A stretch of 64,000 nt of DNA from Psammoneis japonica. Its lineage: Eukaryota. Positions 1,720-59,446 of the stretch are shown here, piece by piece. Every line of letters begins with the position of its first letter. Position 1 is the stretch's first letter. The DNA lies in assembly GCA_008632985.1 (NCBI GenBank), contig QPGO01000044.1, positions 434,001 through 498,000 of the forward strand, written 5' to 3'. The position numbers and the translations under genes were made by a program. The notes under the pieces were generated by a model. The model saw only the letters and a list, made by a program, of their open reading frames with translations, searched no databases and was not told where the DNA came from.

Positions 1720-4000
1720 TGCCATTTTCTCGCACTTAGCCGTGTTGACCATTTGCCGATGCCGCTGAGCACCCCCCCAAACACACGTGATTGTGTCCAA
1801 GTCATGCCTTGACAGACATGCTTTTTTTCAATGCAGTGTCCATGGCCACAGATTAAAAAATCTGGTGCCGTTGGATGACACAGCTGTGGGAGCCTGCACC
1901 CCATGATCTTGAGTTTTGGGGCTGCTGCTTGGGCATCTTTTCATCTCTCTGCGCACCCACCTTCTTTTGGTGCACTGCCATTTTAGCTTCAATGACAAGC
2001 TGGTGCTTGCAGTTGATTCCTGTGCTTTCAATTTGGGTGCAGGTTTTTTGGACTCAGGGACAGCAACACATGAATGTGCGCATCAGCGAGGTCAAACTGA
2101 GGAGCATTTTTTTTCCATTGGGGGCAGTTGAGTGTCAAAATTTTGGGCATGTGGGACCCAACAAAAATGTTTTTTGTGATTGCAGGTTTTGCAAGTTGGA
2201 CAGCTTTCAGCATTTTTGGAGCACAGGACCAAGATGGCAGGCAGCCCCAGTCATCTGGTTTGGAGGCAGGGTGCACAAAGAGTGCGCAGCTGGCAGCCAG
2301 CGAGCTTGCACCATTTGGCAATGCCAGCAGCAGCAGCTGGAAAGGAAAAACAGGTGTTGCACATTGCAGCAGAGCAGCTGTTGTCATGCTTTCTGTTGGC
2401 TAAGAAGTTGCCACAGTCAGAGTGGCTGCCAAGGTGAGAGAGCTCCTCCTCTCAGCTTGGTTTGTGCTTTGCATGGCTGTGCGCCATTCTTTTTTGTTGG
2501 CTGAGCTCAGTGTGGGGTGCACTGCCATTTTGTCAAGGTGGGTGAGATCCCAGTGCAAAGTGGAAAGGTCAAAGCAAATGGAGCAATGTGTGAGAGAGGG
2601 GGGCAAGGAGGGAGAAGTTGTTGGCAGCAGCAGGCAAGCAAGCAAGTGTCCTTGCAAAAAGGGTTGAAACCATCTCTGGCAAGAACTGGCAGCATTGGAA
2701 GCACAGAAAAAAGAGCACATGTCAACACTCAAATGCTTGGAAATCAGGGCTCCACTGGGTGCTGGACTCAGATGCACAGCACTACAGTTTTCTGAGCATT
2801 TGTTTTGTGCACTTGGTGGCTTGAATTGGAAAATGCTTTTGCAGCGGCAATTGAGCACAATTTTTGCATTTGTTGTTGACTTTTGTTGGCTCATTCTGAA
2901 GAAACCTCTTGCCACATTGAAAAATGTTTGGCTCACCTTGCTCTGCAGAGATGTCTTGTCATTTTGTCACCTGGAGCAAGTGACAAAACTGCAGCAAGTT
3001 GCAAAAACAAGAATGGAGCTCTGCAGAAATGACAAGTGCACTCACAATTTTGTTCATTTCATGTGGCTCAAAGTGCCACTCTTGAGGAGTCATTGTTCAG
3101 CACCATGGCCAGTGGCCAGAAATTGTTGTGGACAATTTGTGTTTTGCTCTTTTTGCATGGCACAGCAATGGAGGTGACATTTGGCCTGCCCCATGTGTTG
3201 CACAAAATGACAGTGTCACAAGAGACAGAAGCAATCTCTCTAAACAAAACAATGCAGCAAAAGCCATTGGAGATGTGCTCAAAAGATCAGATCCAGAGTC
3301 AGCTTGTTGAGCAGACACTTCACCCAGATTGCTGGCACAGTCAAGTTTGCATGCGAAGCTCTTTTTTCAGCCCAGATGAAGAGCCACACAATGTTGAGCT
3401 GCTCAAGAGCGGGGCCCTGTTGTGTCGGCCAAGTCATGTGCTGGCTGTGTTTGATTTCTTGTTCAGGACATTCAGCCAATCATTTTTGGTGGATGTGCAA
3501 GCTGGTCTTTGGCACAGCAATTTTTGCAATCAAAGTTTTGAAGTGTGTGTCTTTAGAGTGTCTTCAATTTCCAGCCTCTTTGCTGTGTTGTCCACCCCCC
3601 CTCCCCCAAGAGAGTTGATCTCACTTCACATGTGGTGCATGGATGTTGTGTTCCAACTTGACTCTTGAGAATGCTCCCCAGCCAAGCATGCAAGCATGTG
3701 ACTGCATTGGCAATGGGGGGTGGTGAAAAACCGATCGAGCTGCATGCATGAAGGGGAATGGGGACTCAAAGCACAGCTCAATGCACACGGAAAAGCAGCA
3801 ATGGGCGATGCTGACCTGATTGTCTCTACAGAGTTTGTGCATCATTTTTAGTTGTTCGTTGTTGTCTTGACTGCAATGTGATGCCGCTCGCATGAGTGGC
3901 CTCAGTGATGGCGCAACTCACACGGCAACAATTGCTTCATTTGTTCTTTGTTCCACCCTCCAAGTGTGGCACGGCGTAATTTCGCATCCCACTCTCACTC
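1720..4000. other. CpG- and TpA-depleted hypermutated block 1 with unidentifiable gene relics
   Basis: TA and CG rare, TG/CA in excess; ORF-track peptides are Tyr-free and Cys/His-rich. 3036-3668 resembles a decayed type II membrane protein. Boundaries approximate. Confidence 0.75.
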
Positions 4001-4530
4001 CATGTTCTCGTCCCAATTGCCTGTACAAGTGATGGTCGCACAGGTTGAAGATCTTTTGAAGCATTTGTCCAGTCGCATTCTTGAGTTCAGATTTGTTATG
4101 CTCTCCAACATGTTTGGTTTGCCGCCATCGCTTTTAGCCAATGACTCTGTTGAACAAGCCCACAACTGTACAATCGGAAACTAGCTCCTTCCCCTCACCT
4201 GAATAGCCCACCCAGGTTTCTAATTCCTTGATAGATCCAGAAAAGGCTGATGGTCCTTCGTCACCCAACGGTCTTTCCACAATCCACAACGTCGCGTGTG
4301 TTAAAAATCAAAGAAGCTAGGAGCGTCTGGCTTGGGCGCGCACGTTGCAATGCGCACTCATTCAAATCGATGTCAGCCTTAGATTCACTATTTTTTAATC
4401 TGCTTCTGCCAAAGAGAGTGAACTTTCCCCCCTCGTCCTTTTCTAACCTTGGTCCATTCCCAAGCGAACCTCTTTCGAACGGTTCTATTGACTCCCCTGC
4501 AAAGGCGAAAGCTTGGCGCCACCACTGCTC
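3990..4530 (-). pseudogene. Deleted relic of a sulfotransferase paralogue
   Basis: Collinear fragments match the neighbouring gene: ADIDLNECALQRA ~ GDIDDAEEEWLSRA; FSGSIKELETWVGY ~ FSGSQQEREAWNRY; HWLKAM ~ QWLDAM; MLQKIFNLCDHHLYRQLG ~ ELRKLFHPYNQRLYAMLG. Confidence 0.55.
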
Positions 4531-4552
4531 CACTTCACACCCTCTGAACTGA

Positions 4553-6031
4553 TCAGCCCCATACGCCTTCCCAGTCCGCACCCAGCATGGCATACAGCCG
4601 CTGATTGTACGGATGGAAGAGTTTGCGCAATTCGTCACGAGTCTCGTTCTTTATTGGCGCTCTGTACGTTCCAACATTTCGATAATCGTGGTCTGGAAGC
4701 GTGAAATCGTCGACGCCGAGAAACTTCCAAATCTTGGACATTTGATCATCTGTCTTGGACTTGAGCAGCTCGCTTCTTACAATCATCAAGTCAGATCGAG
4801 GCTTTCCCGCCTCCTCCATGGCATCAAGCCATTGCTGCAACTGAAGAGCGTACAAACTTCGACCGACACAATTATCGTTTTTTCGTTGTGTTCTAATGTA
4901 TCTATTCCACGCTTCTCTCTCTTGTTGAGAGCCAGAAAAGCTTTCGAAATCAATCTTGTTCCAGTCTTGAAGGACACCTGATTGTTGCAGCACCTCCATG
5001 TCGGGTCGTATCCAATCTTCAAAGGATGGGACATCTCTGGGGCTTAGGTTCTTTGTACGATGATTGTAGTTGGAATAGATTCTCTCGATAGGGTCACGCA
5101 ACATTATCAATAGCTTGGCATGGGGAGCAACACACATAACTTGCTGAGGCACCCGATCGGACCAAAGGAGGTACGTGGGTGAATTATCTAGAGCCAACAC
5201 TGTAGAGTTCGTTTCTGCAAGCCCGTCTCGTCGAAACCATTCCGAGTATTCTTCACGTGCTTCCTTGAATAGAATCCCCTCAGTTGTCATGTAGTCATCA
5301 AAGTTATAATCAAAGAAATGCATCTCGTTCAACTTTGGGTCGAGAAACCTTGGGTGCTGTCGAATGTACTGAGAAAGCGCCGAGGTACCGCTCTTCATTG
5401 CTCCCAACAAAATGGCGCGAGGAGCACGCGATAACCATTCTTCCTCGGCATCATCAATGTCTCCATCATGCTTGATGCAAGTATGGTTGTCAAACTTGGG
5501 AAACATTATAGGTGCAAACGAACTCGGTTTAGGTCTAAAATAACGTGTCTTCTTGATGTTCTTTCCGCTGTTTCTGTGATGAGACGCGGCTCCCACAGTT
5601 GATGCTCGCCCTCGATGAAGCTTCTTCCTTTTTGAGATTATGCCTATTCCACCATGCTGATATGGCCTGCCCTGCTTGGAGCGAATCCTGTTTCCTTCCC
5701 ACCAAGCTATGTTTTCCTGACTGTTTACTTTACCTTCTTCCCAAGGAACACGCTTTGCGACGCCATTCTGGAGCGCTTCATTTTTTCCAAGACTTGCCTT
5801 TTCTATCTCTTCCGCGTCGTTTTTCTCCAGATCTTCCTTCAACATAAGTTGATTAGCTACCAGAGAAGCCGTCACCAACCCAACAACTAAGAGCTTCACA
5901 AGGATTCTCCAGCACTCTAGGTTTCCCTCTCTGCTAGCGTGGTCGGGTTTCGACTCTCTTGGAGAAACTAGTTCAGCTTTCTCCATGACATCATCTGTTT
6001 TGTCCTCGCTGTGCTGTCCCACACGCCTCAT
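4553..6031 (-). CDS. Type II membrane sulfotransferase (Sulfotransfer_1, heparan sulfate 3-O-sulfotransferase-like)
   Basis: 492-aa ORF; N-terminal TM; 5'-PSB motif LLGAMKSGTSAL, EMHFFD, 3'-PB motif LRDPIERIYSNY, C-terminal LFHPYNQRL. Confidence 0.9.
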   Translation of the reverse strand: MRRVGQHSEDKTDDVMEKAELVSPRESKPDHASREGNLECWRILVKLLVVGLVTASLVANQLMLKEDLEKNDAEEIEKASLGKNEALQNGVAKRVPWEEGKVNSQENIAWWEGNRIRSKQGRPYQHGGIGIISKRKKLHRGRASTVGAASHHRNSGKNIKKTRYFRPKPSSFAPIMFPKFDNHTCIKHDGDIDDAEEEWLSRAPRAILLGAMKSGTSALSQYIRQHPRFLDPKLNEMHFFDYNFDDYMTTEGILFKEAREEYSEWFRRDGLAETNSTVLALDNSPTYLLWSDRVPQQVMCVAPHAKLLIMLRDPIERIYSNYNHRTKNLSPRDVPSFEDWIRPDMEVLQQSGVLQDWNKIDFESFSGSQQEREAWNRYIRTQRKNDNCVGRSLYALQLQQWLDAMEEAGKPRSDLMIVRSELLKSKTDDQMSKIWKFLGVDDFTLPDHDYRNVGTYRAPIKNETRDELRKLFHPYNQRLYAMLGADWEGVWG

Positions 6032-6723
6032 GCTTCAACACTTTCTTTGCTCCTAAATTCCGCATTGTGTTTTCCACAAAGGCAGCGGCACTTCTCGATC
6101 CATCAGACATCAGACATGCTATCGTACCTTTATGCGTTGAACCGCTGTTTGCGGTTGGAGGGTGCGCGTAGACTGTCCGTTGGATTTTCTGCCCCCCCCC
6201 CCCCCCGCCACGTTTCACCTGGTGTGGGCATGCAGAGTCGTCGAGTGATGCCAGAGTCGTCAACACGCCAACAAAACCCGGATGCCAAAGTGTTGGAAGG
6301 AACACACAAAACAGCATCATTGACCACTGGCTGGTGGCAGCAGAAAGAGCTCTGGCAGAAGAGTGGCCCACATCAAAGGACAAGGAATTCCATTTGGGGC
6401 CAAGTGTGATGCCAAAGAAGAGCTGGCATGAAAGCCAAACATGCCCAGCCGGTCTTGGCCATTGTGGAAGCACGGCGCACATCAGACAGCAGTCGCGGCA
6501 GAGCAGCAAGTGGCCAGAGCAAGAGAAAGGCAAGAGGCTTTAGAGCAAGAATTGATTGACAAGCAAAAAAGAGATGAGGAAAAACAAACTCAGCACCAGG
6601 CCTTGGAAAATCCCAAGGCAGCTGCAAAAGAGCATTTGTGTGAGGGGGGGACGACCAAAAACAGAGGAAGGGCACAGCCAGGCAAAACAGGATGTTTCAA
6701 GAACAAGCAAGATGTAGAGAGAA

Positions 6724-7071
6724 TTGCCAATCAAGGCAAAAAGCAAAGGCACATTCAAGCTTCAACAGCAGCAGTCTAAACAGCGGCACAGTCACAGCTC
6801 CTCACAGCCAACCCTCTGCAGCAACAGCGGTCACAACAACAGAAGCTCAAATGTCGCCAGCAGTCACAATGATGGCAGTTGCAACAATCACAGTTTCCAC
6901 AATGGTGGTTGCCACAGTGGCAGCTGCAATGGCAGTGACTGCAGTGGCAGCAGTTGCAGTGCAGCCCAAATGGCAGCAGCCACAATGGTGCCAGCCACAA
7001 AACAGCAGCAATTTCAATGGCAGCAGCTGCAATGGTGGCAGTCAAAATGGCAGTGGTGGTGGCAGTCATGA
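6724..7071 (+). pseudogene. Low-complexity Gly/Ser/Asn tail of a decayed gene, probably Tyr-rich originally
   Basis: GSCNNHSFHNGGCHSGSCNGSDCSGSSCS reads as a GSY/NGGY-type repeat if Cys/His are reverted to Tyr (inference). Confidence 0.35.
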
Positions 7072-8599
7072 TGCCAAGAGCAGTGAACTCACAGGCACCA
7101 GCTTTTGAGGGCAGCGCAGCCCTGCTGCAGCTGAGATTTTAGGCCCACAGCATTGAAAGACATGCCCTTCCTTGGAAGTGTCAATCAATGCCTCAGACTT
7201 GTTCCAGACTTGGGTGGCATGCTCATGCCCATTTTTGCACAAAAAATGAATGTTTTGTGCTTTGTGCAACATTGTTGACATTTCATTTAAATGATCATGT
7301 GAATGGCTTTTAAGCAAAACAAACAGAGCAAATTCAAGTCAACAAACAGCCAAAACGGCCACGGCTTTCAGGGACCATGACGGCCCACTTTTTTCAACCT
7401 CATGGAAAATTGAATGTCATGACAAGGATCGCAGCATTTAACACAGTCTGTGTGGCATCTGTCACAACAATGAAAATGCCTGATGCAGGCTGCAGCGCGG
7501 CATGAGAAGACTCAATCTGTCAGCACCAACAATTGAGCCTCAATTCGCTCACAACAATTTGCCTCCAAGGTGCACATTTCTTTTCCATTCCCATGTGTGT
7601 TTCCTCCACAATGTGGACTCATGCAAGTGTGTCAGTCATTTGTGCCAAAAGAACAGTGAAAAAGGGTCCAAAGTTGATGCCATTGTGTGTGCTGAGCTTC
7701 ACTTCTTCTCACGTCTTCCGAAACTTGTCAATTGACATTTGTTTTGTTCAATCCATTGACAGCAACTTGTGTTCAAACAAGTGGATGAAATGTTGTTTAT
7801 GTTGCATTTGAGAGCACATTGGCACACAAGAACAACAATTGATGTTGTTCATTGACACAACACAAAAACAGTTGCAAATCGCTCATCAGAAAAAAGAGCT
7901 CTCATCTCACGGCACAATTTGGCGATCAACAACTTGGTCCACCATCCTCAGTTTCTCATGCATGGGTGCATGCACAAGACCTTTCTGCATGTGCCCATGT
8001 CAATGCATTTGAAGATCATCACATTTCAACCATTGAAAATTGCGCCGTAAGTTTGGACTGCGCGTTCATGTGAAAAGGGGCTTTTTTTTGCATGTGTGCA
8101 CACCTGAGTCTGGAACAAGTGCTCACCAGGGAGCAACCTCCCTTGGCTCCAGTTGGCTGTCTTGATGTTCAGAGGTGGGGGGGGGGGGGGGGGGCAAGCC
8201 ACGTGAGCATCTTTGCAAGAAGAAGTTGCCTGGGTGCCAGCCACTGCAGCCAGCGAGCAACCCATGCAGTCACTCAAATGTTCAGAGACAAAAGCAACCT
8301 CATTTGCCAGCTGTTCCCAGACTTTTCCAAAAGCGGCATGTTGCAGATTGTCACAACAAATGCCCTGTGCCCTTGAGCCACCCCTTTTCTCCCCTTTTGA
8401 CATGTTCCAGCCATGCACAAACCAAAGCGTGTGCACAAAAATAACATTTGTGTGAAAAGTCTTCACTCAGCTCTCTTTTCTCATGTGTGTGCACTTCTCT
8501 GAGTGCAATGAAGCATGGCATGTGTCAGCATTGTTGATGGGAAAAGTTTGGTGGCAAAGCAACATCAGAAACCCAAGAGTTGGGGAAAAACCCTTGACC

Positions 8600-11500
8600 T
8601 CAAACTCGATGCTGCACAACTTGCCAAATGTCAAGTCGTTCTGCCACATGAGGCACCCGTTGAACCGCAATGGTGCCATTTGCATGTTCTTGAACAACTG
8701 GGTGTGCACTGTGTGCTCGAGGAGTCAGCTTGGTGGGATCAATGGTCTTGACAAAAACTTGGCCACCAACTTGAAAGTCATGGATCAGTTCTTGGCATTC
8801 ACTCTGTGGAGAGTCATGTTGGTGATTGCTTGTTGACGTTCTTGAACAGCAGCAAGATCTGCCGGAACTGGCAGGGTCTAAGATCATGTCACATTAGAAA
8901 ACCACAGCACCAGGAGAAATCTTGAGAGCCCAGGACACCGCGCATCACATGGCATGCACACAGCTGTTGCCAGCACATCATCCACCAGCTGATCAGCTTG
9001 CCCAATGTTCTGCGGAGGGCAAAGATGAAGCAAAGCACGCAAGACATTGCCAACAATTTGATGCATGCATTTGCGTGCCACATTGGCCTGTGGATTTCTG
9101 GAAGCAGCAGGTGCATCCTCCACTCCCGCCTGCTGCAACAACAGTTGAAAATCCTCTCCAATGAACTCCCCTCCATTGTCATGAATGCAACGGTTGGGAT
9201 GAGGACAACAAGACAACCAACAATTCTTGAACTGTTGGGCAGTGTGAGCTGAGGTTTTGTTGTCAATTCGAGTGAGCTCAGCAACATTCGAAACAACATC
9301 AATGCAAGTCAAAGCATTGAATTCAATCTCCTGGCCCTGGACATCAATCTTCCACAGACCAATGAGGTCAACTGCCATTTCATTCCATGGGAGCAAAGAT
9401 GCTTCATGTTCAGGTGATTCCCCATGTCCTGGACCCAAAGTTTTTAAACATTGACAATCAGCACAATGAAGCTCTTTGCAAGTCAAATGAAGGACAGGAT
9501 GACAAAAATGTGCACCAACAGCAGAGTGCATTTGATGCACTCCCACATGCCCCAATGTCCCACGGCACCAGCAAATCATGTCACACAACAAACAAGCAGC
9601 AGCAGGAGTGCAGATTTTCCATGCCATTGGAGGATCATTGGGATGAGAACGATGACAAATCACAGGATGCTGGTTCACATGCTCTGCAACAAATTGTTCC
9701 AGATGCTGTTGCCATGTGTTGTTCAGTTCCATGTCAACAAATTGGTGCTCTTGGATCCGTTGCATGGTTGTGGGGTTTTGCATTTTGTCAAGTGAGGGAC
9801 AGTTCAAAAATGATTCACACAGCTCAGGGGATCATCAACGAAGGAGGAGTGGAGTTGAGATGGTTCTTCACAACAGGAAAATGAGACACATGATCCAGGT
9901 TGTCAAGCTCCTCTTTATGAGGCAGCATGGCAGTGTCAATCACCTTGAAATCTGTCAACTTGCCCTTGTTGGGAGCACACTTCCCTTCTGTTGGGGAGGC
10001 TCCATGTGAGGCAATTGTGAGAAACAGTTGGTCAACAGGTTGTCCTTGCCAACAACACACTCAAAGGTTGGAGCAAAGTCTTCCAAAAAGAGTCTTCACC
10101 TGAGTGCTCATTGAGAGTTGAGTGTGCGAAAGGTGAGATTTTTATGACAAGCAAAAACAGCACAATCAGCCCCAAGTGGCATGGTGCAGAACATTTTTTG
10201 AAACACATTGCCGCCGAGAGAAGCTCTTTCTCAATGGGTGAACAACTCTGTTGTGCTGCACTGAGCTTCTGCAACCAGCATGCTGCTGGCTTTCCTTCTT
10301 GCATGATCACTGCACCCATTTGATGATCGGAGGAGTTGGCACAAATGTGGAAGGGTTTGTCATGATTTGGACAGACCCAAAGGGTGTCATCCAACATCAA
10401 CGTTTTTGCATCTTCAAAGGCCTTCTGACATTCCAGAGTCCATTCCAACTTGCTCTTGCCGGTTAACTTTGGAAGTGGAGCAAGTGCATGAGAGCAACAG
10501 GGCCACATGTTGTGACAACAGGTTGCTGCACCAATGAAAGATCATAGCTGTGTCATGTTCTGGGGAGGTTGCATCCGTAGAACTGCTTCAACCTTTTTTT
10601 TTCACGGTTGAACTCCTGCAGGTGTGAGCCAATGGCCTGGAAAATCCATCTCTTGGATGCACCACTCACACTTGAGTGGATTGACCTTGAGATTGTTCTC
10701 TTCCAGTCTGGACAACAACTTGTTGAGTCAGTGCATGTGAGTGTCAAACGCATCATCAAACTGAGCAATGTCATCAACACAAGCTTCAACATCAAGTCCA
10801 TTTGCCACTTTCTCAATGACAGCTTGAGCAATGTTGGGAGAAGTCTTCAAACCCATGGCTGGTCGGCAGTGTTGGAACTTTCCAAATGGAGTGACAACAG
10901 CACACAAATGCTCAGATTCTTCATCAAGCTCGCAATGTGACAGCAGAACATGGTGAGGTCCAGCTTGGTTAAAAACTTGTGTCCTGATCATCGGTGCAAG
11001 ACATCTTGAACAATTGGCAGAGGACATGCTTTCCACTCAAGCACCTTGTTTAATTCTCAAAAGCAAGATGCCCACCTAACTTGCCTGTCCTTCTTGGGTG
11101 TTGTGAAGGTTCTGGCCACCCACTCTGTTGGTCCCATTGGTTCTGATGCACCAATGTTGCAAAGGTGTTGTGGTTCCTTCTTGAAAACAGCCTCATCTCT
11201 CTTGGACACTTCACAGGCTTTAGAGTGAAAGGGAACGGCGTTGGGATCAACTTCCAAATGAACAGTTTCATGTGGACATTTGCCAAGGGTCCCATCAAAA
11301 AGGGTTTCATGCTTTTCAAGCATGGCTTGAAGCTTGTCACATTGGTTTGGAGTTGAACGAGTTTGTGGTTGCACAACTTTCTCAGTTGATGCTTTTTCAC
11401 ACTTGGCATCTAACATGAAGGCTTGACCCTGGTGGTCTTCATCATTTTTGTCCTCCTCACAGCACATCCAACCAACTCTAAACTTGGTTCCAATGATTGG

Positions 11501-15569: not shown

Positions 15570-15875
15570 GGCAGAGCTGAGGATAGGCACACCTACTTTC
15601 TAGAGAGAGTAGAGAGGGAGAGTGCGAATCGCAGGTTTTTTGAATTCACACCAAAACTGCGTAAAATGACAATAAGAAGCTCGCATGTACACCCCACACA
15701 AAAGCATACTTCATGCCAAAAACGAAACTCGGCAAGCTGCAAACTGAAAACGGTAGGGCCTTACTGTACTTTCAACGGATTTGGGCGACAGGCGACGACT
15801 CCTCCTCCCAGGGAAAACAAAAAGAGAACATTATGGGATGAAACACTCGTTTCTCCTTTTGTTCGCATTGAGAGA

Positions 15876-48729: not shown

Positions 48730-50990
48730 TGTGTTGTTCAAAGCTTTGTCTGTTCCTTCACAACTTTCAACTTGAAACATTTTGGTTTGAGTCGCTGTTT
48801 GATGTGGCCCCAGTTTTGAAGTGCCGTGGCCGGAAAGTCAAAGTGCCGCAGAAATCTGCTTCCAATTGAATGTTCATTTCTTTTCTAGCTTGAGACAAAT
48901 TTGACCTTGTTCAGCACATGTCAGCGACATCAACACGGCTTAACTCCAAGCACTTCAAACTCAGTGAATCCCCAGTTTGTGCATGAAAGCACTTGTCATC
49001 TTTGTGGGGTTTCAGATGCACCAGTGGGCTCGAACGTCTCCAGCTTAAAGATGAAGATAAACCGCACAGTGGAAAAGGAAATGGGTTGATGTGCCTGCAT
49101 TGAAGCTGCTGCAACCTTTCCCTTGTGAGTCACCAGCACCTCAGATTCATTCCATCCCACAAGGTGATTGTTCCCCTCACTGTCACATGTGAGGCAAAGG
49201 CCATCACATTGTGGGTGTTTCCATTTTGCTGGGTGCATCATCATTTGTGATGATGCAATGCAGGCACTTGGATGATTCAACCTGTTTGGTTCCTGCATGT
49301 TGTGCATGTCATGACATCAACAACTCCCTTGCAAATGAAAGAAATGGTGAAGGACATCCCTTGCACAACAATGCTTGCAGTGGCAAAACTGCCAAATGCT
49401 GTCTTGGTGCTGGCTTTCCTTCTGTTCTTTGGAAGAATGACCAAAAGAGAAGAAAAAAGCTGAGACAAATGAGCTCCCATGACAGTTGTCAGCACTGTGC
49501 TCAACTTGCACATTGATTCAGCAGGTGGCTGACTGGCGAAATCATCACAACTGCCTCTCTCTTTGACTTCTTGACAGGACAGCAGCCCACTTTGCTTCCT
49601 CTTTGATGCAGGGTGCCTGGCTCACTCACCACTGCAAGGCTTTGTGCAACAATTGTGCAAGCCCTGCATGTGTGTGCCTTGTCTAAAGAGGCTCTTGCAG
49701 ATTCGGAACAGATGGCACAAAAAAAAATGGCTAAAGTGATGTTTGTTGTGTGGAGCTCATCTGCACACACATGTTCGTTTGGCTCAGTGCCAAGTCAGGA
49801 GTGTGCTCACAACACCGCTGCAATGCACAATGGTGCAAATTGCGCCATTGTGCTCAAAGTCATTTTCTGTTTTGTTGTTGCTGTGACATTGCCTCTGTGC
49901 ACAGCAGTGTCAACTGAGCTCATGTTGACAGGTGCAAGCAATGAGCGCAGCTTGCGATTGTTGCACATCTTTCAATGGACAGCACAGGGCAGAATTGCAC
50001 TCTTTTTGCTGAAGAATCCTTTGTGAAGTGCAGCCATCAAGAGAGTCTGTGCCAGCTGAACAAAAGCAAGATGCTCACATTGTCTCATTTTTGAAACATG
50101 GTGCAGCCTCCAGAGCATCTCCAGCAGCACACTTGGTCTGTTCCAAGCAGCAAGACAACAGTGAAGCCATGTGGAAACTCTGAAAAAACACAAAAAAACA
50201 CTTGCAATTGTTCCACCATGTGCCAAATGTGAGACCCCACATTGCATTTGCTTGGAGCCTCAGGGCTGAGGTCAAATCACTTCTCATGTGGACACCAACA
50301 AACAATGCCAAGGTGCTGCATGCTCGGCTGAAAACTGAAAACCTGCACAACAACAAGGGAAACAAACAACACAAGAATCATGTTGATCCTGGTCAGCCTT
50401 TTTGCCACCCACCAGTGCCATGACTCTCACATTTGATGAGCCACAAATCAAGTTTCTTGCCCTCTCAAGAGAGGTGCCTGGAGCCTCAGGGCTGAGGTCA
50501 AATTGCCTCTCATGTGGACACCAACAAACAATTCCAAGGCATCACACACTGGACTGAAAGCTGAAAACCTGCATGACAACAAGGGAAACAGACAAGACAA
50601 GAATCATGTTGGTCCCGGACAGCCTTTTTGCTGCCCACCCGTGCCGCGACTCTCATCTTTGGTGTGTCACAAATCAAGTTTCACCCTCTCAAGGTGGCAA
50701 CTGTGCACAAAACAGGAGCTTGCATCTTGACACTCCAAACACATGCTTGCAACCATTCGTGGCTCATGGCACAGGTTCAACACAGCACGTGGGCATTCCA
50801 GAACGTGACCATCACATCATGCAACATCATGTTGTGTGGTGCATGAGCCGGGTGAGTCATCTTGCCAAATGGTGCCAACAGGCAACTGGCAGATGGTGCG
50901 CATCAATCGACTCATGTTTAAATGCAGCAGCAGAGGCAAGGCTGTCGGCAACACATGGTCCTCACTGGGATTGTGGTGACAGTGTGGAGC
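48730..50990. other. CpG- and TpA-depleted hypermutated block 5
   Basis: Same signature; content unidentified. Confidence 0.78.
50253..50693 (+). repeat. Tandem duplication, 2 x ~226 bp
   Basis: Units start tggagcctcagggctgaggtcaaat at 50253 and 50479. Confidence 0.92.
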
Positions 50991-51191
50991 TGTACCGTAC
51001 AATGCTGACCGACGCTGTCGAACAAATGCTTTCTATCCGTCATTGTAGAGACATGCCAGTCTGGCAACTGCCTCTCTAGCTACTAGAGAGTGGTCATAGC
51101 ATGTGCCTGCCGGTACGTAACTCCACCGCTGACTCCTCCACAGGCTGAGCAATGCAATTATTTTATTTTAACTGGTGTGCTGGACGGCACT

Positions 51192-54100
51192 TTATTGTTG
51201 AAGCCTACGAATGTCTTCCAGCACAGCATCCTGGAGTGGCAACATTCCTTTAGTCCCCGCAAGAGAATACATTCTAATGCCGCATATGTCTGGCAGCTTT
51301 CGGCTGATGTTGTCCCACCACCGTTCAAGCATTCTCTGGTTAACCCGCCCGTCATTCACAAAGAAATCCATGAATTCCTTTTCTTTTGGGAAATCATTTG
51401 GTCCCTTGAGTTCGTCAAAGAAAATTGGTAAGATTATTTTCTCATGTTGCAGCGCAAGGTCGAGTTCCAGCATACACCAGTGGCGTTGAAAATACTTCGG
51501 AGACAAGACAGCAACAAATATGGAGCAATTCCTTGCCTCTAATCGGATCCGACGCTCGAGGTTCTCTCCCGTTTGCAGACACGTGTCATCATAGAAATAC
51601 ACCATGCTCTCACGTTTCAACTCTCTTTCGAGGTATGCTGTAAAATCGGCCGCTCTAGTGTCCTTGCCCGTGTGACTGAGGAAAACCTTTGGCTTGTCTG
51701 TAATGATGCCAAGTACCTCTTGGTTGAGCTGCTTGACATAGCCGACTTGCTCTCCCGTTGTGATAAAGTCACTTTTATCACTTCGGTGCACCCATACATT
51801 ACCAATCTCAGGGATTTTAACTTTTACGTAGTTGTCGCCTGTTTTCTGCCCTAGGTTGAATTTACATTCCTCATCATGGGGCGACCATACTAAACCCGTT
51901 GGTATTCCTTCGTATTCAGGGGGTCGTAGTGGCTTGTTCTTTTGAATCATCTCCACAATGGATTTCATTTCCCCGTGTTGTAACCCTGTCGTTTGAGTCT
52001 CCATCGATACGCTCACACCTAGAGTCCTATCCAGCCGAACCGTCTCAGGTTCCAGGTGGGGCAGAGAGGGAAAGCTAGGTGTCCGCTCTTGGTCTCGTAT
52101 GTCAGCCAAAGTGCGCGGAGTTTCAGACGACGGCAATCGTTACACCCTCCAGATAGCAGGTGCTCTTGTTTCGCCAAGAGGAGGTAGCAAATGATGTGGG
52201 GCTCGTTCGCATGTTTTTCAAAAAGGTTTCGCAGTGAGTCTAACGTGTCTGCTCTCGAAGACGAATCAGGCTCACTATTCTGCCCACTTTTGACCCTGCT
52301 CTCCTCTAGTGTCCTCTGTCGCTTTAGGTTTCGTGGTGAGTCTAACGTGTCTGGTCTCAAAGACGAATCAGGCTCACTCTCCTGCCCGCTTTTGTCCCAG
52401 CTCTCCTCTAGTGTCCTCTGTCGCTGCTTCTTCACTCCAAGCAGCCATTCTGCCACTTTGTCAATCTCACGGACCGAATGACATAGTGGACAAACGGCAA
52501 CAGCTTGTCGATAGTCTTGAAGCGTTTCCATGCCCCAACTCTCTGACAACAACCGCCTGCCAATCGCGAAGCACATTCCACATCCAAACGTACGAGATCC
52601 ACCCCAGGAAAGTCTTTCAGGCAAGAGCTTATTGCTTGCAGGATACGATACTGCAGGAGCCTGCCTTGCCCGTATGTATTAACCAGTACGACTCGCTCAT
52701 CCTCTTCCCAAACGAGTCTTCCAAAGCTTATTAGGGCTTTCTGACCGTCCGAGGTGATTGTTTCCATAACTACGCAGCCATTCTTCCACCATCCACCAAT
52801 CAACGTCGATCCACGAAGCTTCACCTGAAGCTCCGGCCACAAACGTCGGGACTGAGTAGATAACTCGATTTGTATAATAGGATTCGGTTTCAAAGCGCTG
52901 TTGTCTGCGGCGAGCTCTTCCACAAGTGTCTCCATTGCCGAACCAGACCGAGAAATCATAGCCGGAACTAGTGTTGCTTCGTATTTCTCTCCGTCGTCAT
53001 CACGAATCGGAAAGCCAACTTCGCATTCATGGATCAGAGCTAGAAAACCATCATGAAGCTCTTTCGGATAGTCCTTCCAAACTGCACCAAGTTCCCGGTG
53101 CCGCAGGTATCCATCGCGTGCGTTCCTAACGTATCGCTTGTCATTGGTAACTACTCGTGCCAAGACTTGAGCCAGTTCCGGTGGGTCAAGGATGATCTCT
53201 CCCGTCGGCAAGCGCAGCACTTCGCCAATCTCATTGAAGAAGGTCAGTACACGGTCAACGCGTTCTTCCTCGGCGATGTTTACATCCTTGGCATGAGAGT
53301 CCCATTCATCTCTTGTCAGAAAAAACTTCCCGTCTTGCCGGAGATCGGCCAACTTCGATCGTAGACGTATGTACGTGCTCGGCACCAGCATGTCCTTGAC
53401 CCCGACGGTGGCACCAATGTCATCCATCACCGACTTGGCCGTGGCCTTGATTCGTTCCATCAGACCAGAGGTGCCGTTTCCGTCTTTTGCGCTCGTGTGC
53501 ATGTAATCAACAAAGTTTCGGCCGTACAAATCTTTCAACTTATCCTCCACGTCTGGCGATAGACTAGCGTGGCCCATGTCAGACTTTGTTGTCACAAAGA
53601 TAATTCGAGCATTTGGGTTTGCATCTAGAACGTCTTCGGCATAGCGATGGAAGGGCGTGTCCGTTTGGCGGTTGTCCCACACCACCACAAACACGGCTCG
53701 GGTGCGTAGAAAGAGTTGGTGTGTCGTGGCATAAATAGGTTGACCTCCAAAATCATAAAACACCAATTCGAGACCACTCTCATCCTTGATTCGTTCCTCC
53801 AGCATACCGTTAGTCATTGCAGGTGGCGGCGTTGTTGGATATTCATCTCGTACCAAGCGAGACACGAGACACGTCTTTCCTGCTTCGCCTGGACCTGTAA
53901 CGATAACCTTGGTTATGGCGAGTGCCTCCTCGCCCGTTTCCCACCGTTCACGCAAAAAGGTGAGAATTTCTCTGTTATCCTTGTTGTTGTACTCAAGGGG
54001 CACTTGAAGCAGGGGTAGGTACTCGTTCAATTGAAGGAAATCAATGTATTCGAGTTTGGGAAATTTTTGCTCCAACAAGGCTCGAGCAAATTTCTCACCC

Positions 54101-55470
54101 GTATCGCGGTCACATGATCGTCCAAGATACACATGTCTGAGGCTGTCGTTATGGCTAGATGCCATGGATGAGACAATAGAATTGGCGCCGTTGTCTCCAA
54201 TGCTATTGTCGTAAAGGACGAGCTCTCGCAATGTACCATTGTTTGGCAAGGCCTGCGCCAACGCCGTGGCTCCCTCGGCTCCAATGCTGTTTCCGCCAAG
54301 CTGGAGCACTAGCAATGTACCATTGTTTGGCAAGGCCTGCGCCAACGCCGTGGCTCCCTCGTCTCCAATGCTATTTCCGTAAAGGAAGAGTACTTGCAAT
54401 GTACCATTGTTTGGCAAGGCCTGCGCCAACGCCGTGGCTCCCTCGTCTCCAATGCTATTGCCGGAAAGGTAGAGCTCTTGCAATGTACCATTGTTTGGCA
54501 AGGCCTGCGCCAACGCCGTGGCTCCCTCGTCTCCAATTCTATTTCCGCCAAGGTTGAGCACTTTCAATGTACCATTGTTTGGCAAGGCCTGCGCCAACGC
54601 CGTGGCTCCCTCGGCTCCAATGCTATTTCCGCCAAGGACGAGCTCTCGCAATGTACCATTGTTTGGCAAGGCCTGCGCCAACGCCGTGGCTCCCTCGTCT
54701 CCAATGCTATTTCCGCCAAGGTCGAGCTCTTGCAATGTACCATTGTTTGGCAAGGTCTGCGCCAACGCCGTGGCTCCGTCGACCCTAATGCTATTGTAGG
54801 AAAGGCCGAGCACTTTCAATGTACCATTGTTTGGCAAGGCCTGCGCCAACGCCGTGACTCCCTCGTCTCCAATGCTATTTCCGCCAAGGTGGAGCGTTTG
54901 CAATGTACCATTGTTTGGCAAGGCCTGCGCCAACGCCGTGGCTCCCTCGTCTCCAATTTTATTGTGGGAAAGGCCGAGCACTTGCAATGTACCATTGTTT
55001 GGCAAGGCCTGCGCCAACGCCGTGGCTCCCTTGTCTCCAATTCTATTTCCGCCAAGGAAGAGCTTTTGCAATGTACCATTCTTTGGCAAGGCCTGCGCCA
55101 ACGCCGTGGCTCCCTCGTCTCCAATGCTATTTCCGACAAGGTCGAGCACTTGCAATGTACCATTGTTTGGCAAGGCCCGCGCCAACGCCGTGGCTCCCTC
55201 GTCTCCAATGCTATTTCCGCCAAGGTCGAGCACTTTCAATGTACCATGGTTTGGCAAGGCCTGTGCCAACGCCGTGGCTCCCTCGTCTCCAATATTCCTT
55301 CCTCTCAATTTGATCTCCGTTAGCTGTGGATCATTTTGTTGGAGTCGACGGCAGTACTCCGCCACCGTTGAATTTTGGTTGGACGTTGCATGCTGGTTCG
55401 ACGTTGAATTTTGGTTGGACGTTGCATGCTGGTTTGACGAAGCATTGTCGGCGGACATGGATGATCCCAT
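51192..55470 (-). CDS. LRR-Roc-COR-TIR (Roco-type) receptor; two apparent frameshifts near 52545 and 52020
   Basis: 13 RI-type 28-aa LRRs; Roc GTPase (VTGPGEAGKT, YDFGGQ, TKSD, TSAK); COR-like region; linker in ORF 52019-52624; TIR in ORF 51192-52136 (KVFLSHTGKD, VLSPKYFQRHWCMLEL). Confidence 0.85.
52225..52428 (-). repeat. Coding tandem repeat, 2 x 102 bp
   Basis: RQRTLEES...DTLDS.RNL occurs twice, 34 aa apart. Confidence 0.85.
54200..55295 (-). repeat. Array of 13 x 84-bp LRR units
   Basis: Near-invariant caatgtaccattgtttggcaaggcctgcgccaacgccgtggctccctcgtctccaat alternating with ~25-nt variable segments. Confidence 0.97.
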
Positions 55471-56199
55471 CGTTGTTGGGATGTTGTAGATACACGTGTA
55501 CAAGTAAGTGGAAGAGTCACACGGTCCGTTTCTAGTTCAACAAAAATGGAATGGCTCCCGCAGGATATAACCTGATGGGTTTGACAAAGAAAATAGCAAC
55601 AGCAAAAAATTGGACCGTGAGCAACACTTATTTGTCGTTAAAGGGATGAAAGCTCTTGCGACGTCACGCATGATCACGAGAAAACGATAGCCGACAGCAA
55701 ATGTTTTGTTCCTTCGACATACCAAGGGATCACTTACTATTTCTGGAACAACTTGTCAAACTAGTGGCAACAATAACAAATCAGAAACAATGGCACGCAA
55801 CTTCTTTCTGAAAAGCTTGTTTCGAGATGCGGTGATTCGCGGCACGATTCGGAAACGCGGATGATTCGAATGATTCGATGAAATGCACACAAAAGCGTTT
55901 ATCGTGGACGGATTTGCTTCTGTTTGCAATTCAAATGCTGTAAACCTCTTGGAATCAAACTCCAACACAATGTATCTTGGTTGCGAGGCTGCTTTGAACC
56001 GTTTCGAAAAGTGTAGTCAATGGACGATGATCGTCATGGCGGCGGGCAGCGATGTACTGTACGTAGGCCCTGCTGTGTGGATACCGAGCAGCGACTGCGA
56101 AATGCGAACGATGTGCGTGCGTGTGATGACGTCATCACATGCGTTGATTGTTGATTGAGTGGCGGGCAGATTTCAAGATGCTGACATTCTTCCCCCCAC

Positions 56200-59100
56200 T
56201 CTAGAGAGAGCACGGAACGCTTCCCTGAACGGGGCTGTGCATCACAATTGTTGCCGCATTTTTCAATCTCAAAGAGAGAAGGACATCTGCACTGTTCTTG
56301 GGCATCCTTTGGATGTTTGTCACTTGTCGGCCTGCACCCTGTCATTTTGCCAGGCTGTTGAAGAAATTGCCACCAATGTTCGCCAAAGTCGCTCTGCTTG
56401 TGTGCGGCCAACAAGCGAAACATCGTGCGTGGCCACAACAATTGTCTGAGCATTCTGTGACATCCTGGAAATGGGCAAAGCATGGCCTGTCACCAGAAAA
56501 ACTTTGTTTGGCAATCACGCACATTTGGCACCACAAGTGTCCATCCTTGCCCCTGTGGAGGTCATGTGGCATGTCATTTTCAACTGCTTTTTGTCCCCAT
56601 TCATGCTGTTGTCTTTGACGCAACAAAGCACATGAGGACAAGAAGAGCTGGCTTTAGGGGCATTGTGAAAACAACACGAAAAAAGCTCGGGCTGCACTGT
56701 TGCCCATGTTGCTGATGCAAAAAACCGTGGGCAAGGATGCAACATGTCAGCCCACTGAGGTTTGGAGGGCAACACACCAACGTGCATCAGAGCCTGCTCC
56801 ACAAGGCTGCAAAAAGTGAGCCGTCATGGTTTGGCTCTGTTTGTTTGTTTGTTTGAATTTATTCTGTTTGTTTCAACCATCAGCCATTGACATGTGATCA
56901 ACACAACAAAATGTGCACAGTGTTTGACAAAGCACAAAACATTTGTTTTTTGTGCAAAAAGGGGCATGTGCAAAGCTTGCTTTGCTTGGCAGCCCACATG
57001 TTTGTCCACCTGCCCTCTTGCTTTCCATTCTCTGTTGAAGGGCAATGTGCGCTTGACTCTGACAATGACTTCAATGAGAACAAGCCATGGTTTTTGGATG
57101 TTTTGGATGACTCTGCTCAGCTTTGCAAAAGAACAAGGTGGAGTTTAAGAAGCTGAGCAACTCACCGCTCTCCAGCTGGTCACTTTGGCATCACAAGCAC
57201 TCAAAGGTTTAGGCTGCTGAGCTGGGTTGCCTGTGCGTCAAATGCAAAAGCTGCGTGATGCAGGGCTTGTGCATCTCTCACACTCAATGCTGCACTGGTG
57301 TTGCCACAACAACAAGAACAACTGCAGCCAGCTTTGACAAAGGAAAGCATCTGCGCACCAGTTGTTTCTTTGTCACATGTGTGTTTCTTTGATGGGGTGT
57401 GCATTGGCCAGCAAATCTGTGTGACTTCATTGCTTCCTTTTCAAGGGCATGGGCTCAGTGTGGAATCTTGGCGTTGTTGTTGCTGGATGTTGACATCTGC
57501 CCTGGAGCCACATCCACCAATGGTGGCACCTTTTCAGGACTTTGGCCAAGTTGGTCTTGACTCTGGTCTCATGGGGATGAACCTGATGACCCCAAATTGG
57601 ATGTTGGACAAGGTCTGCCAAAGGACTTTGTCTGATGGATGGAATTGCTGCAAGATGTGGATCTGGAAGCATTTGAAGGACTTCTTGCTGTTTCACCCAT
57701 GAGTGAATCTGCACAACCAGCATGGTGTTTTAACCCTGGAGGATCTTTGCTGGACAAAAAATTGTTTCTGCCAAACTTGCCTTCTGGCATTGCCAAGTCA
57801 TTTCTCACATGGACGGGCTCCAATCCTGGGTGGGACTCCGTGTGACATTGGGCCCGTAGAATTCTGCATGCAAGCTCCACAGTGATTTTGTCAAGCAATG
57901 AAAATGTGAATGATCGCCAACAGAAAAAGAGGCAATTTTACGAGTGCATCTCCTCCTTCACACTTGCAGCACATGAACAATGGCATGCATGGGCACATTC
58001 TGCAGACATTAAAGAATGTGCCCAGAACATTTTCGTTGTCACAAATGTTGAAAATGGAAAGCCTTTGGCTTTGCAAAATGGGAAGTGTGAAACAATTTTG
58101 TGGAGCATCATGCCATCCACGTGCATGACATGCGGCACGATCCAAAAAACCATTGATGTCACAGTTCAGCAGTGCAAGGTCCCACCCAGAGCTGGAATGC
58201 ATCCATGCTCACCCATTCAGCCCTGAGGTTCCCAGCTGCAGACACCTTGTTTTGCTGACTGCCAATCTCCTCATCACCAAAATGTGGCAAAGAATTGCCT
58301 GTGAGTGTGCATTCACAAATCTGTCTTACATCCAAACATTTTGCCCCTGGGTGCAATGACCCCGGTGGCCACCACCAAGGCACAAGAACACACAGACTAA
58401 AAAAAGCAGAGCGCGCAATGATGCATCACAAGTTGCTGTCAGACTGTCCAAAGTCTTCTTCTCTGGCATTGCCTGTCTTGGATTTACACACCAACTGGTT
58501 CCAAATGTCATTTCCATGGCAAATTTTTTTTAAATTCCATGCTGGAATTAGCGCACGCATTGGTTGATTTTTTGCCTGAAACAGACTGCCGGCAAAAAAG
58601 CAGAGTGCGCAATCATGATGCAGATCCAAACAAAGCAAGTGTGGGTTGCACTGGTCAAAGCACCACAATGATGTCCATTGTTGACCATGTGTCACAACAA
58701 TTGCCCAAGTGGTTGAGCGACATGCAACCATTCATCATTTGTTTGGGGAACAATTCTTCTCATGACCGTGGCGTCACAGGCGTCCATGCATTTTTCCAGC
58801 AGAGTGCTTGTGTCATGGGGCAGCAACAAGTTGTGGGTGCTCTTGCTTTCCCCAATTGCTGAGACTTTCCCATCATGATTTTTGAAGCAAAAGTCTGGCT
58901 TGCCAACTGGGGCTGATTCTCTTGTGACAGAATGAACCAGGTGGGCTCTTCTTAGAAACTGAGTGCGCCTGTCATTGGGTGATTTTCCTCTGATGTTTCC
59001 GACCGGCAGGAAGCATCGCTGGATTTCAACACATCCAAGAAGACAGTGAACACAACTGGTCTCAACTCTCTCGCATTCGGTTCATGCTTGGAAGCCTTCC

Positions 59101-59446
59101 CGATGAAGCCTCTCCACATGAGGACACTTGGAGATGGAGGAGGATGCATGCAACCGCTCCTTGGTTCATCAATCCTGGTGTGTGCAGCAATGTCGCTGCT
59201 TTCCAAAAGAGGGGGAATCAGATGCTGCTCCAAAAGTTCTCCTGTTGAGTCAACGGATGGCGCAGCCAAGTTCAGGTCCAAGTGATGACTGAAAATTTCA
59301 TGAAATTTGTTGTTCCACTCGGTTCATTCTTTTTTCTCCTTGCGTGATGGTTGCTTGATGTTCACAGCTTCTGAGCTCAAGTCGCCGTCAAGAACATAGC
59401 CATCGTTTGCGGTTTGGTCAAGGAAATCGTAGTAATCCTCAGCCAT
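56200..59446 (-). mobile_element. Hypermutated block 6: long decayed minus-strand gene, possibly a piggyBac/IS4-like transposase
   Basis: Starts MAEDYYDFLDQ at ~59446 (still unmutated), then degenerates; ends in a Cys-rich segment (WCQMC...CFACW). No terminal repeats or TTAA found; class is a guess. Confidence 0.3.

Follow-up and report, generated by a model that had tools for sequence, protein, structure and literature searches.

Position-dependent loss of TpA and CpG by transitions in six intergenic blocks of a contig from the diatom Psammoneis japonica

We describe six blocks of DNA in a diatom genome that have lost most of their TpA dinucleotides, together with most of their CpG, through transitions that turned both into TpG or CpA. 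The blocks lie in a 64,000-nt stretch of Psammoneis japonica (NCBI GenBank assembly GCA_008632985.1, contig QPGO01000044.1, positions 434,001 to 498,000 of the forward strand), called the window below, and all positions are counted from its first letter. The direction of the change, TpA to TpG or CpA, is proven by the intact outgroups of a degraded Ty3/gypsy element in block 2 and by a paralogous duplicate of which one copy lies inside that block and the other outside it. The analysis demonstrates, moreover, that the process is real, that it depends on the neighbouring bases, that it hit both strands and hit each copy independently, that it was still active after a late duplication, and that it is confined to the blocks. 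An initial annotation, made from the letters of the sequence, had proposed a second region-specific process acting on TpA in CpG-depleted blocks; the outgroups, a 220-bp duplicate and a T-A-Y context (Y, pyrimidine) bear out this proposal, and every factual statement of that annotation was reproduced.

Over the whole window, the observed/expected ratio (o/e) is 0.38 for TA and 0.69 for CG, a deficit that is uneven along the sequence. Segmentation of the window in 300-bp windows returned exactly six blocks, 23,850 bp summed (Table 1), in which o/e ranges from 0.056 to 0.098 for TA, from 0.17 to 0.29 for CG, from 1.63 to 2.01 for TG and from 1.80 to 2.07 for CA, at a GC content of 0.471 to 0.481, as elsewhere in the window. 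We pooled the blocks and compared them with 36,550 bp outside (300-bp margins excluded). Results showed 109 TA inside (o/e 0.07) versus 1428 outside (0.57; binomial p ~1e-264) and 297 CG inside (0.22) versus 2015 outside (0.98; p ~1e-262), with TG at 2657 (1.78) versus 2606 (1.18) and CA at 2798 (1.89) versus 2747 (1.17). At the frequencies of the flanking DNA, ~930 TA and ~1,310 CG would be expected inside the blocks; survival per site is 12% for TpA (88% lost) versus 23% for CpG (77% lost), and TpA now makes up 0.46% of the block sequence. By mass balance of the pooled counts, TA and CG together are down by 7.7% of sites and TG and CA together are up by 8.2%, and this match between what was lost and what was gained explains the unchanged GC content (0.475 pooled, both inside and outside). 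These sliding-window ratios recover the six blocks poor in CpG and TpA that had been noticed from the letters, and they agree with the earlier claim that the TpA loss is left unaccounted for by CpG decay or by the repeat-induced point mutation (RIP) of fungi, TpA being lost more fully than CpG and CpA having risen.

Table 1. Blocks, gypsy landmarks and duplicated segment in the window (TA and CG are counts within the block; RT, reverse transcriptase; codon changes are given on the coding strand)
Feature	Positions	Strand	Details
Block 1	1751-3900	.	8 TA, 21 CG; TA o/e 0.056, CG o/e 0.17
Block 2	6251-15100	.	8,850 bp; 35 TA, 105 CG; degraded Ty3/gypsy element and flanking repeat DNA
Gypsy pol remnant (protease/RT, RNase H, integrase)	8606-12035	-	4-5 frame segments; rve and RT_RNaseH_2 domains; tblastn with intact relatives
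Integrase R-Y-P-R-P, now CCPHP	9196-9210	-	CGT->TGT, TAT->TGT, CGT->CAT; R in 46/48, Y in 47/48, P in 48/48 relatives
SDHQ (Y->H)	10320-10331	-	Y in 46/48 relatives
RT active-site YIDD, now CVDD	10770-10781	-	TAT->TGT, ATT->GTT; Y in 43/48, I in 46/48, both D in 48/48 relatives
FQHCR (Y->H)	10863-10877	-	Y in 48/48 relatives
Duplicated 220-bp segment, mutated copy	14894-15106	+	inside block 2
Duplicated 220-bp segment, unmutated copy	15347-15569	+	240 bp outside block 2; TA-rich (13 TA per 100 bp), normal CpG
Block 3	17351-22350	.	25 TA, 59 CG
Block 4	27351-30200	.	19 TA, 39 CG; TA o/e 0.098
Block 5	48901-51000	.	8 TA, 25 CG; 220-bp tandem repeat at 50249-50693
Block 6	56251-59150	.	14 TA, 48 CG; TA-free zone extends to 59396

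The gypsy element of block 2 gives the direction of change at the level of codons. Its pol remnant was aligned by tblastn with 48 intact relatives, which are the matches of at least 900 amino acids (aa) among the first 60 of 112, and 424 columns were taken as conserved, each with at least 80% agreement among at least 15 relatives. At these columns none of the 20 conserved Tyr is retained, 14 having become Cys (TGY), 4 His (CAY) and 2 Phe (TTY). Of the 31 columns with conserved Arg, 8 still have it; of the 23 codons that changed, 20 now read TGA, TGG, TGY, CAY or CAA; the stops of the remnant are TGA codons derived from CGA (5 of the 23). Among the other conserved residues, retention was 10/10 for Gln, 12/14 for Trp, 31/35 for Gly, 32/37 for Pro, 20/23 for Lys and 18/21 for Phe. 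Further replacements, namely of Leu by Pro (CCA, 4) or Ser (TCA, 3), of Val by Ala (GCA, 5) and of Ile by Met (ATG, 2), are all TA->TG/CA changes within a codon. The four motif replacements that had been used to fix the direction (Table 1) were all located on the minus strand, and the replaced residues are Tyr or Arg in 43 to 48 of the 48 relatives.

We then scored the conserved codons by the base that precedes the changed one. At codon position 2, transitions were found at 14 of 20 TA sites, 2 of 41 AA, 2 of 23 CA and 2 of 46 GA, so that A-to-G occurred at 14/20 sites after T versus 6/110 after other bases (Fisher p = 5e-10), which supports the claim that this change is commoner at TpA than elsewhere. 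At codon position 1, T-to-C was found at 4 of 20 TA sites versus 1 of 42 TG and TT sites (p = 0.03). Tyr codons underwent 18 transitions versus 2 transversions. Both strands were hit within this one gene, as Tyr to Cys corresponds to A-to-G on the coding strand, and the replacement of Tyr by His, of Leu by Pro or Ser and of Val by Ala corresponds to T-to-C. The DNA of five intact relatives has a TA o/e of 0.60 to 0.81 and a CG o/e of 0.78 to 1.30; with such normal values in the relatives, the signature does not belong to the element family as such. No pair of long terminal repeats was found for this element by blastn or by purine/pyrimidine-coded blastn, and the weak coded matches look like low-complexity sequence.

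Repeated segments showed where and when the changes arose. The two copies of the 220-bp segment differ by 30 mismatches, 26 of which are transitions; 14 of the differences are TA->TG/CA and 5 are CG->TG/CA, with the TA or CG always in the copy outside the block. As only the copy in block 2 is mutated, position matters rather than sequence. TA and CG are both self-complementary and yield TG or CA according to the strand that is hit, and therefore copies that were mutated independently should differ by CA<->TG double changes. The 139 mismatches of five repeat pairs inside the blocks (1,017 aligned bp, 75% transitions) include 22 such doubles, versus 3 in the 481 mismatches of four control pairs of paralogues outside the blocks (2,543 bp, 55% transitions), a control count that excludes the pair 54183-55125 / 54351-55293 (self-aligned, 0 mismatches). 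The 22 doubles versus 3 indicate that the hits were independent, in place and on both strands. Scoring as purines and pyrimidines lifted the identity of in-block pairs from 84% to 96% and from 80% to 92.5%; the tandem pair of block 5 is 84% identical as bases and 96% as purines and pyrimidines, and holds 6 CA<->TG doubles. Since adjacent tandem copies were hit independently, the changes were made in the chromosome and not in RNA or cDNA before integration. The youngest repeat, a 97% duplicate in block 3 (20265-20802), differs by 2 CA<->TG doubles, 1 CA/CG, 1 CA/TA (a TTAA), 1 other transition and 1 indel. These differences fall at leftover TA and CG sites, so the duplication took place after most of the conversion and the process continued later.

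The TpA that survive in the blocks define the sequence context. As had been noticed from the letters, most of them stand in four words, TTAA (31), CTAA (16), TTAG (15) and TTAT (11), which make 73 of the 109. The four RTAY words (R, purine) are nearly gone, with 0 ATAC, 0 ATAT, 0 GTAT and 2 GTAC, that is 2 of 109; outside the blocks they make up 454 of 1428 TA, and in 12.6 kb of DNA from intact relatives 29.6% of 679 TA. We fitted a model in which the survival of each NTAN word is the product of two independent strand hits, each set by the base 3' of the A. Fitted cumulative hits per strand were 2.36 for T-A-T, 1.91 for T-A-C, 0.99 for T-A-G and 0.06 for T-A-A, in agreement with the preference for TAY first suggested by the initial annotation; compared with a single rate, the likelihood-ratio chi-square was 160 (3 degrees of freedom), and the 16 NTAN counts were reproduced reasonably. 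The motif order is therefore T-A-Y >> T-A-G >> T-A-A, with T-A-A, hit ~35-fold less than T-A-Y, almost immune. CpG loss also depends on context, amounting by the base 5' of the C to 1.05 for T, 0.81 for A, 0.69 for C and 0.41 for G (chi-square 34.5), and so shares with the TpA process a preference for a 5' T. It is conceivable that one enzyme with a pocket for a 5' T is responsible for both losses, although a metagenomic protein described below (P0046) argues that the two are separable.

Along the window the two losses are tightly coupled. Of 128 windows of 500 bp, 44 combined low TA with low CG and 81 showed neither; low CG by itself occurred in 0, and low TA by itself in 3, all of which lie at block edges (r = 0.81). 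There, the TA-free zone exceeds the CpG-poor zone by 100-400 bp (6170-6280, 22356-22475 and 58960-59396): on its left side block 2 is without TA from 6170 and CpG-poor from ~6280, and on the right side of block 6 there is no TA between 58953 and 59397. By these margins, the TpA process seems to reach slightly further out than the CpG decay. Each block occupies an intergenic gap, with edges 100-400 bp from the adjacent open reading frames (ORFs). Block 1, for instance, lies between an amine-oxidase gene (3-1478) and a sulfotransferase gene (4553-6031), and its left edge is sharp, within ~100 bp.

As for the content of the blocks, Pfam scans of 93 ORFs with 100 aa or more and of 108 shorter ones (62-99 aa) found mobile-element domains in block 2 only and none in blocks 1, 3, 4, 5 and 6. 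In these scans block 1 gave no Pfam domain, block 4 gave no mobile-element domain, and the sole hit other than those of block 2 was a weak, sub-threshold match to Glyco_transf_61 at the left edge of block 4. In addition to its 97% tandem duplicate, block 3 holds three ~185-bp repeats (21241-21790), and a segment of block 6 (56972-56798) is related to a segment of block 2 (7220-7406).

We also looked for the same signature in other elements. Among 210 relatives of the gypsy pol protein, five had less than 1.5% Tyr. Three of these, P0046, P0200 and P0208, are gypsy pol fragments from JGI metagenome sources, known here as proteins, and they retain 0/9 (6 Cys, 3 His), 2/7 and 0/3 of the conserved Tyr, respectively. 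The other two, P0189 (7/9 retained) and P0184 (2/3), were dropped as hypermutated cases. In P0046, 16 of 18 conserved Arg are retained, and Tyr being lost with Arg kept argues that the TpA process needs no CpG decay and that the two losses can occur separately. A protein 81% identical to P0046 (P0181) has normal Tyr (3.85%), and among the 106 differences between the two the commonest are Y>C (10), I>V (9), Y>H (6), T>A (5), I>M (4) and V>A (4). Between P0046 and P0200 there are 4 H>C, and between P0046 and P0208 2 C>H, which at the protein level would be the trace of CA<->TG doubles. To judge from these translated fragments, the TpA process appears to be present in another element family, in environmental data. 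The DNA of P0046 was found neither in metagenome_contigs (5 loci returned, all ordinary relatives) nor in viral_contigs.

Reads of the same sample supported the assembled letters. Run X1, a public run whose library type is unrecorded, holds 87% of the sampled words of 8000-12000. Its contigs differ from the assembly at 2 positions over 990 bp (8539-9528), 2 over 1,555 bp (13581-15135), 1 over 1,505 bp (18790-20294) and 0 over 1,256 bp (22030-23285), and the last of these spans the right edge of block 3. The initial annotation had named disagreement between reads and assembly as the sign of an artefact; inside the blocks and across this edge, they agree. The contigs have a word depth of 67-105, and such a depth of exact 31-letter words requires accurate reads. 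When contigs were gathered at 85% likeness, their summed depth rose up to 2,628 in blocks 2 and 3 versus ~100 in genes, which indicates many diverged copies in the genome. These copies differ from the window mostly by transitions (A>G 195, C>T 165, G>A 133, T>C 146; 12-27 per transversion type). Among the 40 window-versus-contig differences that were listed, out of 824, 11 were TA->TG/CA, 6 CG->TG/CA, 6 rows formed three CA<->TG doubles, 2 were TG/CA->TA, 1 was TG->CG and 14 were other.

A second run, X2, gave a 1,678-bp contig over the intact sulfotransferase gene at 4553-6031 (minus strand), whose sole differences from the assembly, at 4563, 5111 and 5387, are all TA->TG/CA; X1 is without changes at these three positions. 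X2 covers genes and little else and is thus perhaps a transcriptome. Either an effect at the RNA level or new TpA mutations in this host gene, which lies beside block 2, could account for the three differences. In the latter case, the process may still be active and reach genes adjoining the blocks.

To explain these observations together, we propose that the blocks would be silenced repeat or transposon DNA, mutated in place, on both strands and over a long period, by two transition processes that would both end within ~100-400 bp of the neighbouring genes. One process would turn CpG into TpG or CpA by deamination of 5-methylcytosine (5mC) in CG-methylated repeats. The other, at least as fast per site, would turn TpA into TpG or CpA and would be limited to A after T, with a preference for T-A-Y; its enzyme may be a deaminase that recognizes the 5' T and is recruited to silent chromatin, where it would convert adenine to hypoxanthine, read as G. 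Proteins would then be ruined by missense (Tyr to Cys or His, Ile to Val or Met, Val to Ala, Leu to Pro). A process that is transition-only, strict for a 5' T, dependent on the 3' base, active on both strands, limited to domains and faster than methyl-CpG decay has the properties of a DNA-acting enzyme in a chromatin domain. We consider this account, taken as a whole, to be on balance probable; for the chemistry taken alone, adenine deamination to hypoxanthine is the leading candidate on the present sequence evidence, although we would not quite call it probable. The TpA process would be of the same kind as the hypermutation of silent integrated viruses in the rhizarian alga Bigelowiella natans. 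The initial annotation was unsure whether such a process had been reported, and a report of TpA hypermutation in 15 mutation-accumulation lines of B. natans did appear in April 2026 (Mettrop et al., bioRxiv 10.64898/2026.01.13.699255).

The main rival places the damage on the thymine of TpA. A dioxygenase of the TET/JBP type would oxidize T to 5-hydroxymethyluracil (5hmU) or 5-formyluracil, and mispairing with G would leave T-to-C at R-T-A. 5-Formyluracil does mispair with G, and dinoflagellates place 5hmU mainly at TpA and TpC. As T-A-Y is R-T-A on the opposite strand, the word counts and the codon and context data fit this reading equally well; in addition, the same blocks lose both 5-methylpyrimidine-purine steps, tightly coupled over the 128 windows, and enzymes of this class, whose substrates would be the 5-methylpyrimidines of silent chromatin, could attack 5mC as well. 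Against it, the analysis met no evidence of such bases or enzymes in diatoms, and P0046, which lost TpA without CpG loss, indicates that a shared enzyme is not required. The authors of the B. natans study favour adenine deamination, as a hypothesis only (bioRxiv 10.64898/2026.01.13.699255). We regard oxidation of thymine as unlikely, albeit the most serious competitor. That TpA and CpG are lost together (44 windows low in both, 0 in CG only) would also be expected if the TpA changes were collateral damage of repair, in which T:G mismatches left by 5mC deamination are handled by non-canonical mismatch repair and T within WA (W, A or T) is miscopied by a polymerase similar to Pol eta, as in phase 2 of antibody hypermutation. 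TA is indeed the top hotspot of Pol eta. Several results disagree with this idea: the AA half of WA is spared (2/41 versus 14/20 for TA), Tyr codons show 18 transitions versus 2 transversions when Pol eta yields many transversions, TpA loss (88%) exceeds CpG loss (77%) though CpG deamination would be the trigger, the TA-free zone reaches 100-400 bp past the CpG-poor zone, P0046 lost its Tyr codons with Arg codons intact, and mutations in the hypermutable regions of B. natans are at TpA only. Of the two mechanisms offered by the initial annotation, adenine deamination thus stands, fitting the 5'-T context and the transitions, and Pol eta-like repair, contradicted by the AA sites, the few transversions and P0046, looks quite improbable.

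The presence of a retroelement in block 2 invites the thought that the changes were made before integration, by ADAR-like RNA editing or by a deaminase or error-prone reverse transcriptase acting on cDNA, and were fixed by retrotransposition. ADARs favour a 3' G, and here the T-A-G rate (0.99) is below that of T-A-Y (1.9-2.4). They also prefer a 5' U (bioRxiv 10.64898/2026.01.13.699255), as would be required; but both strands are changed within one element, side-by-side tandem repeats differ by CA<->TG doubles, the 220-bp duplicate is mutated at one of two neighbouring positions, and five blocks are without a retroelement domain in the Pfam scans. An origin before integration retains only a slight chance. 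Errors of long-read base calling or polishing over heavily modified DNA might also be suspected, given that methylation of the blocks is probable and that X1 has no recorded library type. X1 contigs at ~70-105x, nonetheless, reproduce the blocks with 0-2 differences per 1-1.5 kb, a systematic error would not alternate between CA and TG from one repeat copy to another, independent metagenome proteins share the Tyr to Cys or His pattern, and in B. natans the same type of mutation was called from Illumina data. This depth, this alternation between copies and these proteins make a base-calling artefact very unlikely. The least credible reading is that the blocks are foreign DNA that avoids CpG and TpA intrinsically, as is known in some viruses, and was never mutated: coding capacity has been destroyed exactly at TA and CG codons, intact relatives are normal in TA and CG, and an unmutated paralogous copy stands 240 bp away.

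Several points weigh against our proposal of two transition processes in silenced repeats, with adenine deamination behind the TpA part. We infer the deaminase and the role of 5mC in the blocks from the sequence, and we assume that the blocks are silenced. A-to-G on one strand is T-to-C on the other, and a process altering thymine fits the sequence equally. For adenine, the one ADAT2 that has been tested on DNA favours GAA and not TAY (PMC10354150). The context rates assume that the original tetranucleotide make-up of the blocks was that of the flanking DNA, an assumption checked against the 12.6 kb of relatives, which gave a similar baseline. Five of the six blocks have no recognisable element; what marks blocks as repeats is the depth of contigs, which does so in blocks 2 and 3 alone, and within these two some parts (13796-15123 and 19772-20435) appear single-copy at 85% likeness. 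Finally, X1 is possibly the same run that built or polished the assembly, and agreement with it is then not fully independent.

The ORFs between the blocks are intact and encode an amine oxidase, sulfotransferases, a galactosyltransferase and EF-hand, DUF6824, DUF4116, TIR, LRR-Roc-COR and EMP70 proteins. All named relatives of the amine oxidase are from diatoms, at 40-51% identity (Phaeodactylum, Fragilariopsis, Fistulifera, Nitzschia, Amphora). Two sulfotransferase paralogues, at 4553-6031 (minus) and 22593-24023 (plus), are inverted, share 74% DNA identity and bracket blocks 2 and 3 together with a gene at 15666-17015; a third sulfotransferase lies with the galactosyltransferase at 24454-27079. 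The sulfotransferases and the galactosyltransferase suggest a gene cluster for sulfated glycans. Between blocks 5 and 6, a gene with a TIR domain (51192-52136, minus) adjoins an LRR-Roc-COR (ROCO) gene (52432-55503, minus) whose LRR part is made of 13 tandem copies of an 84-bp unit (54099-55406, 86-91% identity), and the two look like a pair of the innate-immunity type. Inverted duplicates ~17-20 kb apart, 45468-46323 / 62746-63598 (85%) and 43806-43964 / 63847-64000 (81%), have an ordinary TA and CG content and an ordinary share of transitions.

For annotation, the signature has practical consequences. TA->TG/CA changes are unable to make stop codons, and the blocks contain long open frames on both strands (274-315 aa) at 11699-12529 (plus), 18186-19007 (plus), 12542-13381 (minus) and 8887-9831 (minus). 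As TAA and TAG have vanished from the blocks, such long ORFs are liable to be called genes, so that annotators meet long false ORFs in DNA that similarity-based transposon searches miss. The same signature can be scanned for in any genome, and the responsible gene should therefore be findable by phylogenetic profiling. A natural DNA adenine deaminase with a strict motif, if there is one, would be of interest to base editing.

Among known systems, fungal RIP is the obvious comparison. Like RIP, the process described here inactivates repeats in place and irreversibly by transitions only, at a dinucleotide target and with sharp limits. RIP consists of C-to-T changes mainly at CpA and creates TpA and stop codons. 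Here, on the contrary, TpA is destroyed (o/e 0.07), CpA is up (1.89), GC is unchanged and no stops come from the TpA changes. With only one of the two neighbouring copies of the 220-bp segment mutated, duplication alone may not be the trigger, although this segment is shorter than the RIP threshold. Deamination of 5mC would explain the CpG->TpG/CpA half of the signature and its restriction to repeats, and leaves TpA untouched. The order of CpG loss found here is TCG > ACG > CCG > GCG, whereas in the human clock-like CpG signature TCG is the slowest. Diatom transposons are CG-methylated through DNMT5, and in Phaeodactylum methylation is described as limited to transposons (Huff and Zilberman 2014 and Hoguin 2023, as cited in PMC12344493).

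Enzymes of the ADAT2/TadA class can deaminate both A and C in DNA, and the natural ADAT target, A34 of tRNA, always follows U33. According to PMC10354150, the pocket of TadA/ADAT-type enzymes takes up both the target base and the base 5' of it, and the amphioxus enzyme BjADAT2, expressed in Escherichia coli, prefers TCG for cytosine and GAA for adenine, with a weak activity that is not targeted to regions. Its TCG preference corresponds to the order of CpG loss here, and its adenine preference differs from the TAY context of the blocks. Trypanosoma ADAT2 is also cited as acting on DNA (in bioRxiv 10.64898/2026.01.13.699255). Hypermutation by AID and Pol eta and hyper-editing by ADAR are programmed and local and have a hotspot with T or U before A, as here; unlike them, the changes in the blocks spare AA, include few transversions, affect both strands, are made in place in DNA and favour a 3' pyrimidine.

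The closest system is that of B. natans. According to the main text of Mettrop et al. (bioRxiv 10.64898/2026.01.13.699255), 231 of 302 nuclear mutations fell in two integrated viral regions, 230 of these 231 were A-to-G or T-to-C, all of them on TpA as the authors state, and the rate was ~6e-7 per site per generation, ~1000-fold over background. The B. natans genome also contains TpA-poor, CpA- and TpG-rich clusters enriched for reverse-transcriptase and transposase domains, and the authors propose an ADAT2-like DNA deaminase and a role in genome defence. In that main text the terms CpG, diatoms and trinucleotide context have 0 occurrences each. Both systems share A-to-G or T-to-C changes at TpA that give TpG and CpA, in discrete blocks with the rest of the sequence normal; in the window, a gypsy element was shown for block 2 only. 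They differ in lineage, a rhizarian versus a diatom (stramenopile), and in target, giant-virus and virophage inserts that still have 3.3% and 9.2% TpA versus transposon and repeat blocks near saturation, at 0.46%. CpG decay always accompanies TpA loss here and is unmentioned in the B. natans text; the 3' context is defined here (T-A-A ~35-fold below T-A-Y) and the B. natans main text gives none. The rate in B. natans was measured in living lines, whereas ours is known from the footprint alone. Full-text literature searches, with most subscription journals outside their coverage, returned no other TpA-directed hypermutation of transposons and none in diatoms, nor a report of a TpA process at transposon saturation or together with CpG decay.

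Mobile DNA is known to undergo programmed hypermutation at cytosine, as in RIP and by APOBEC; an A:T-directed DNA process has so far been reported once, in one rhizarian alga and without an enzyme. It is tempting, if doubtful, to extend the parallel to a defence by chromatin- or RNA-guided adenine deamination of DNA in diatoms and perhaps, with B. natans, in much of the SAR group (stramenopiles, alveolates and Rhizaria), an A:T counterpart of RIP that would act on T-A-(not A), faster than methyl-CpG decay, would disable transposons and integrated viruses for good yet make no stops, would end within a few hundred bases of host genes, and would perhaps be still active in this strain, leaking into adjoining genes and adding to the genome-wide TpA deficit. 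The window is new in its lineage, the second for such a process, in its targets, which are transposons and repeats, in a footprint that has reached saturation and has a defined T-A-(not A) motif, and in the CpG decay that accompanies this footprint. With its saturation and precise borders, the window looks like the end state of a process of the B. natans type, and extends the phenomenon to a second major lineage of ecologically dominant algae.

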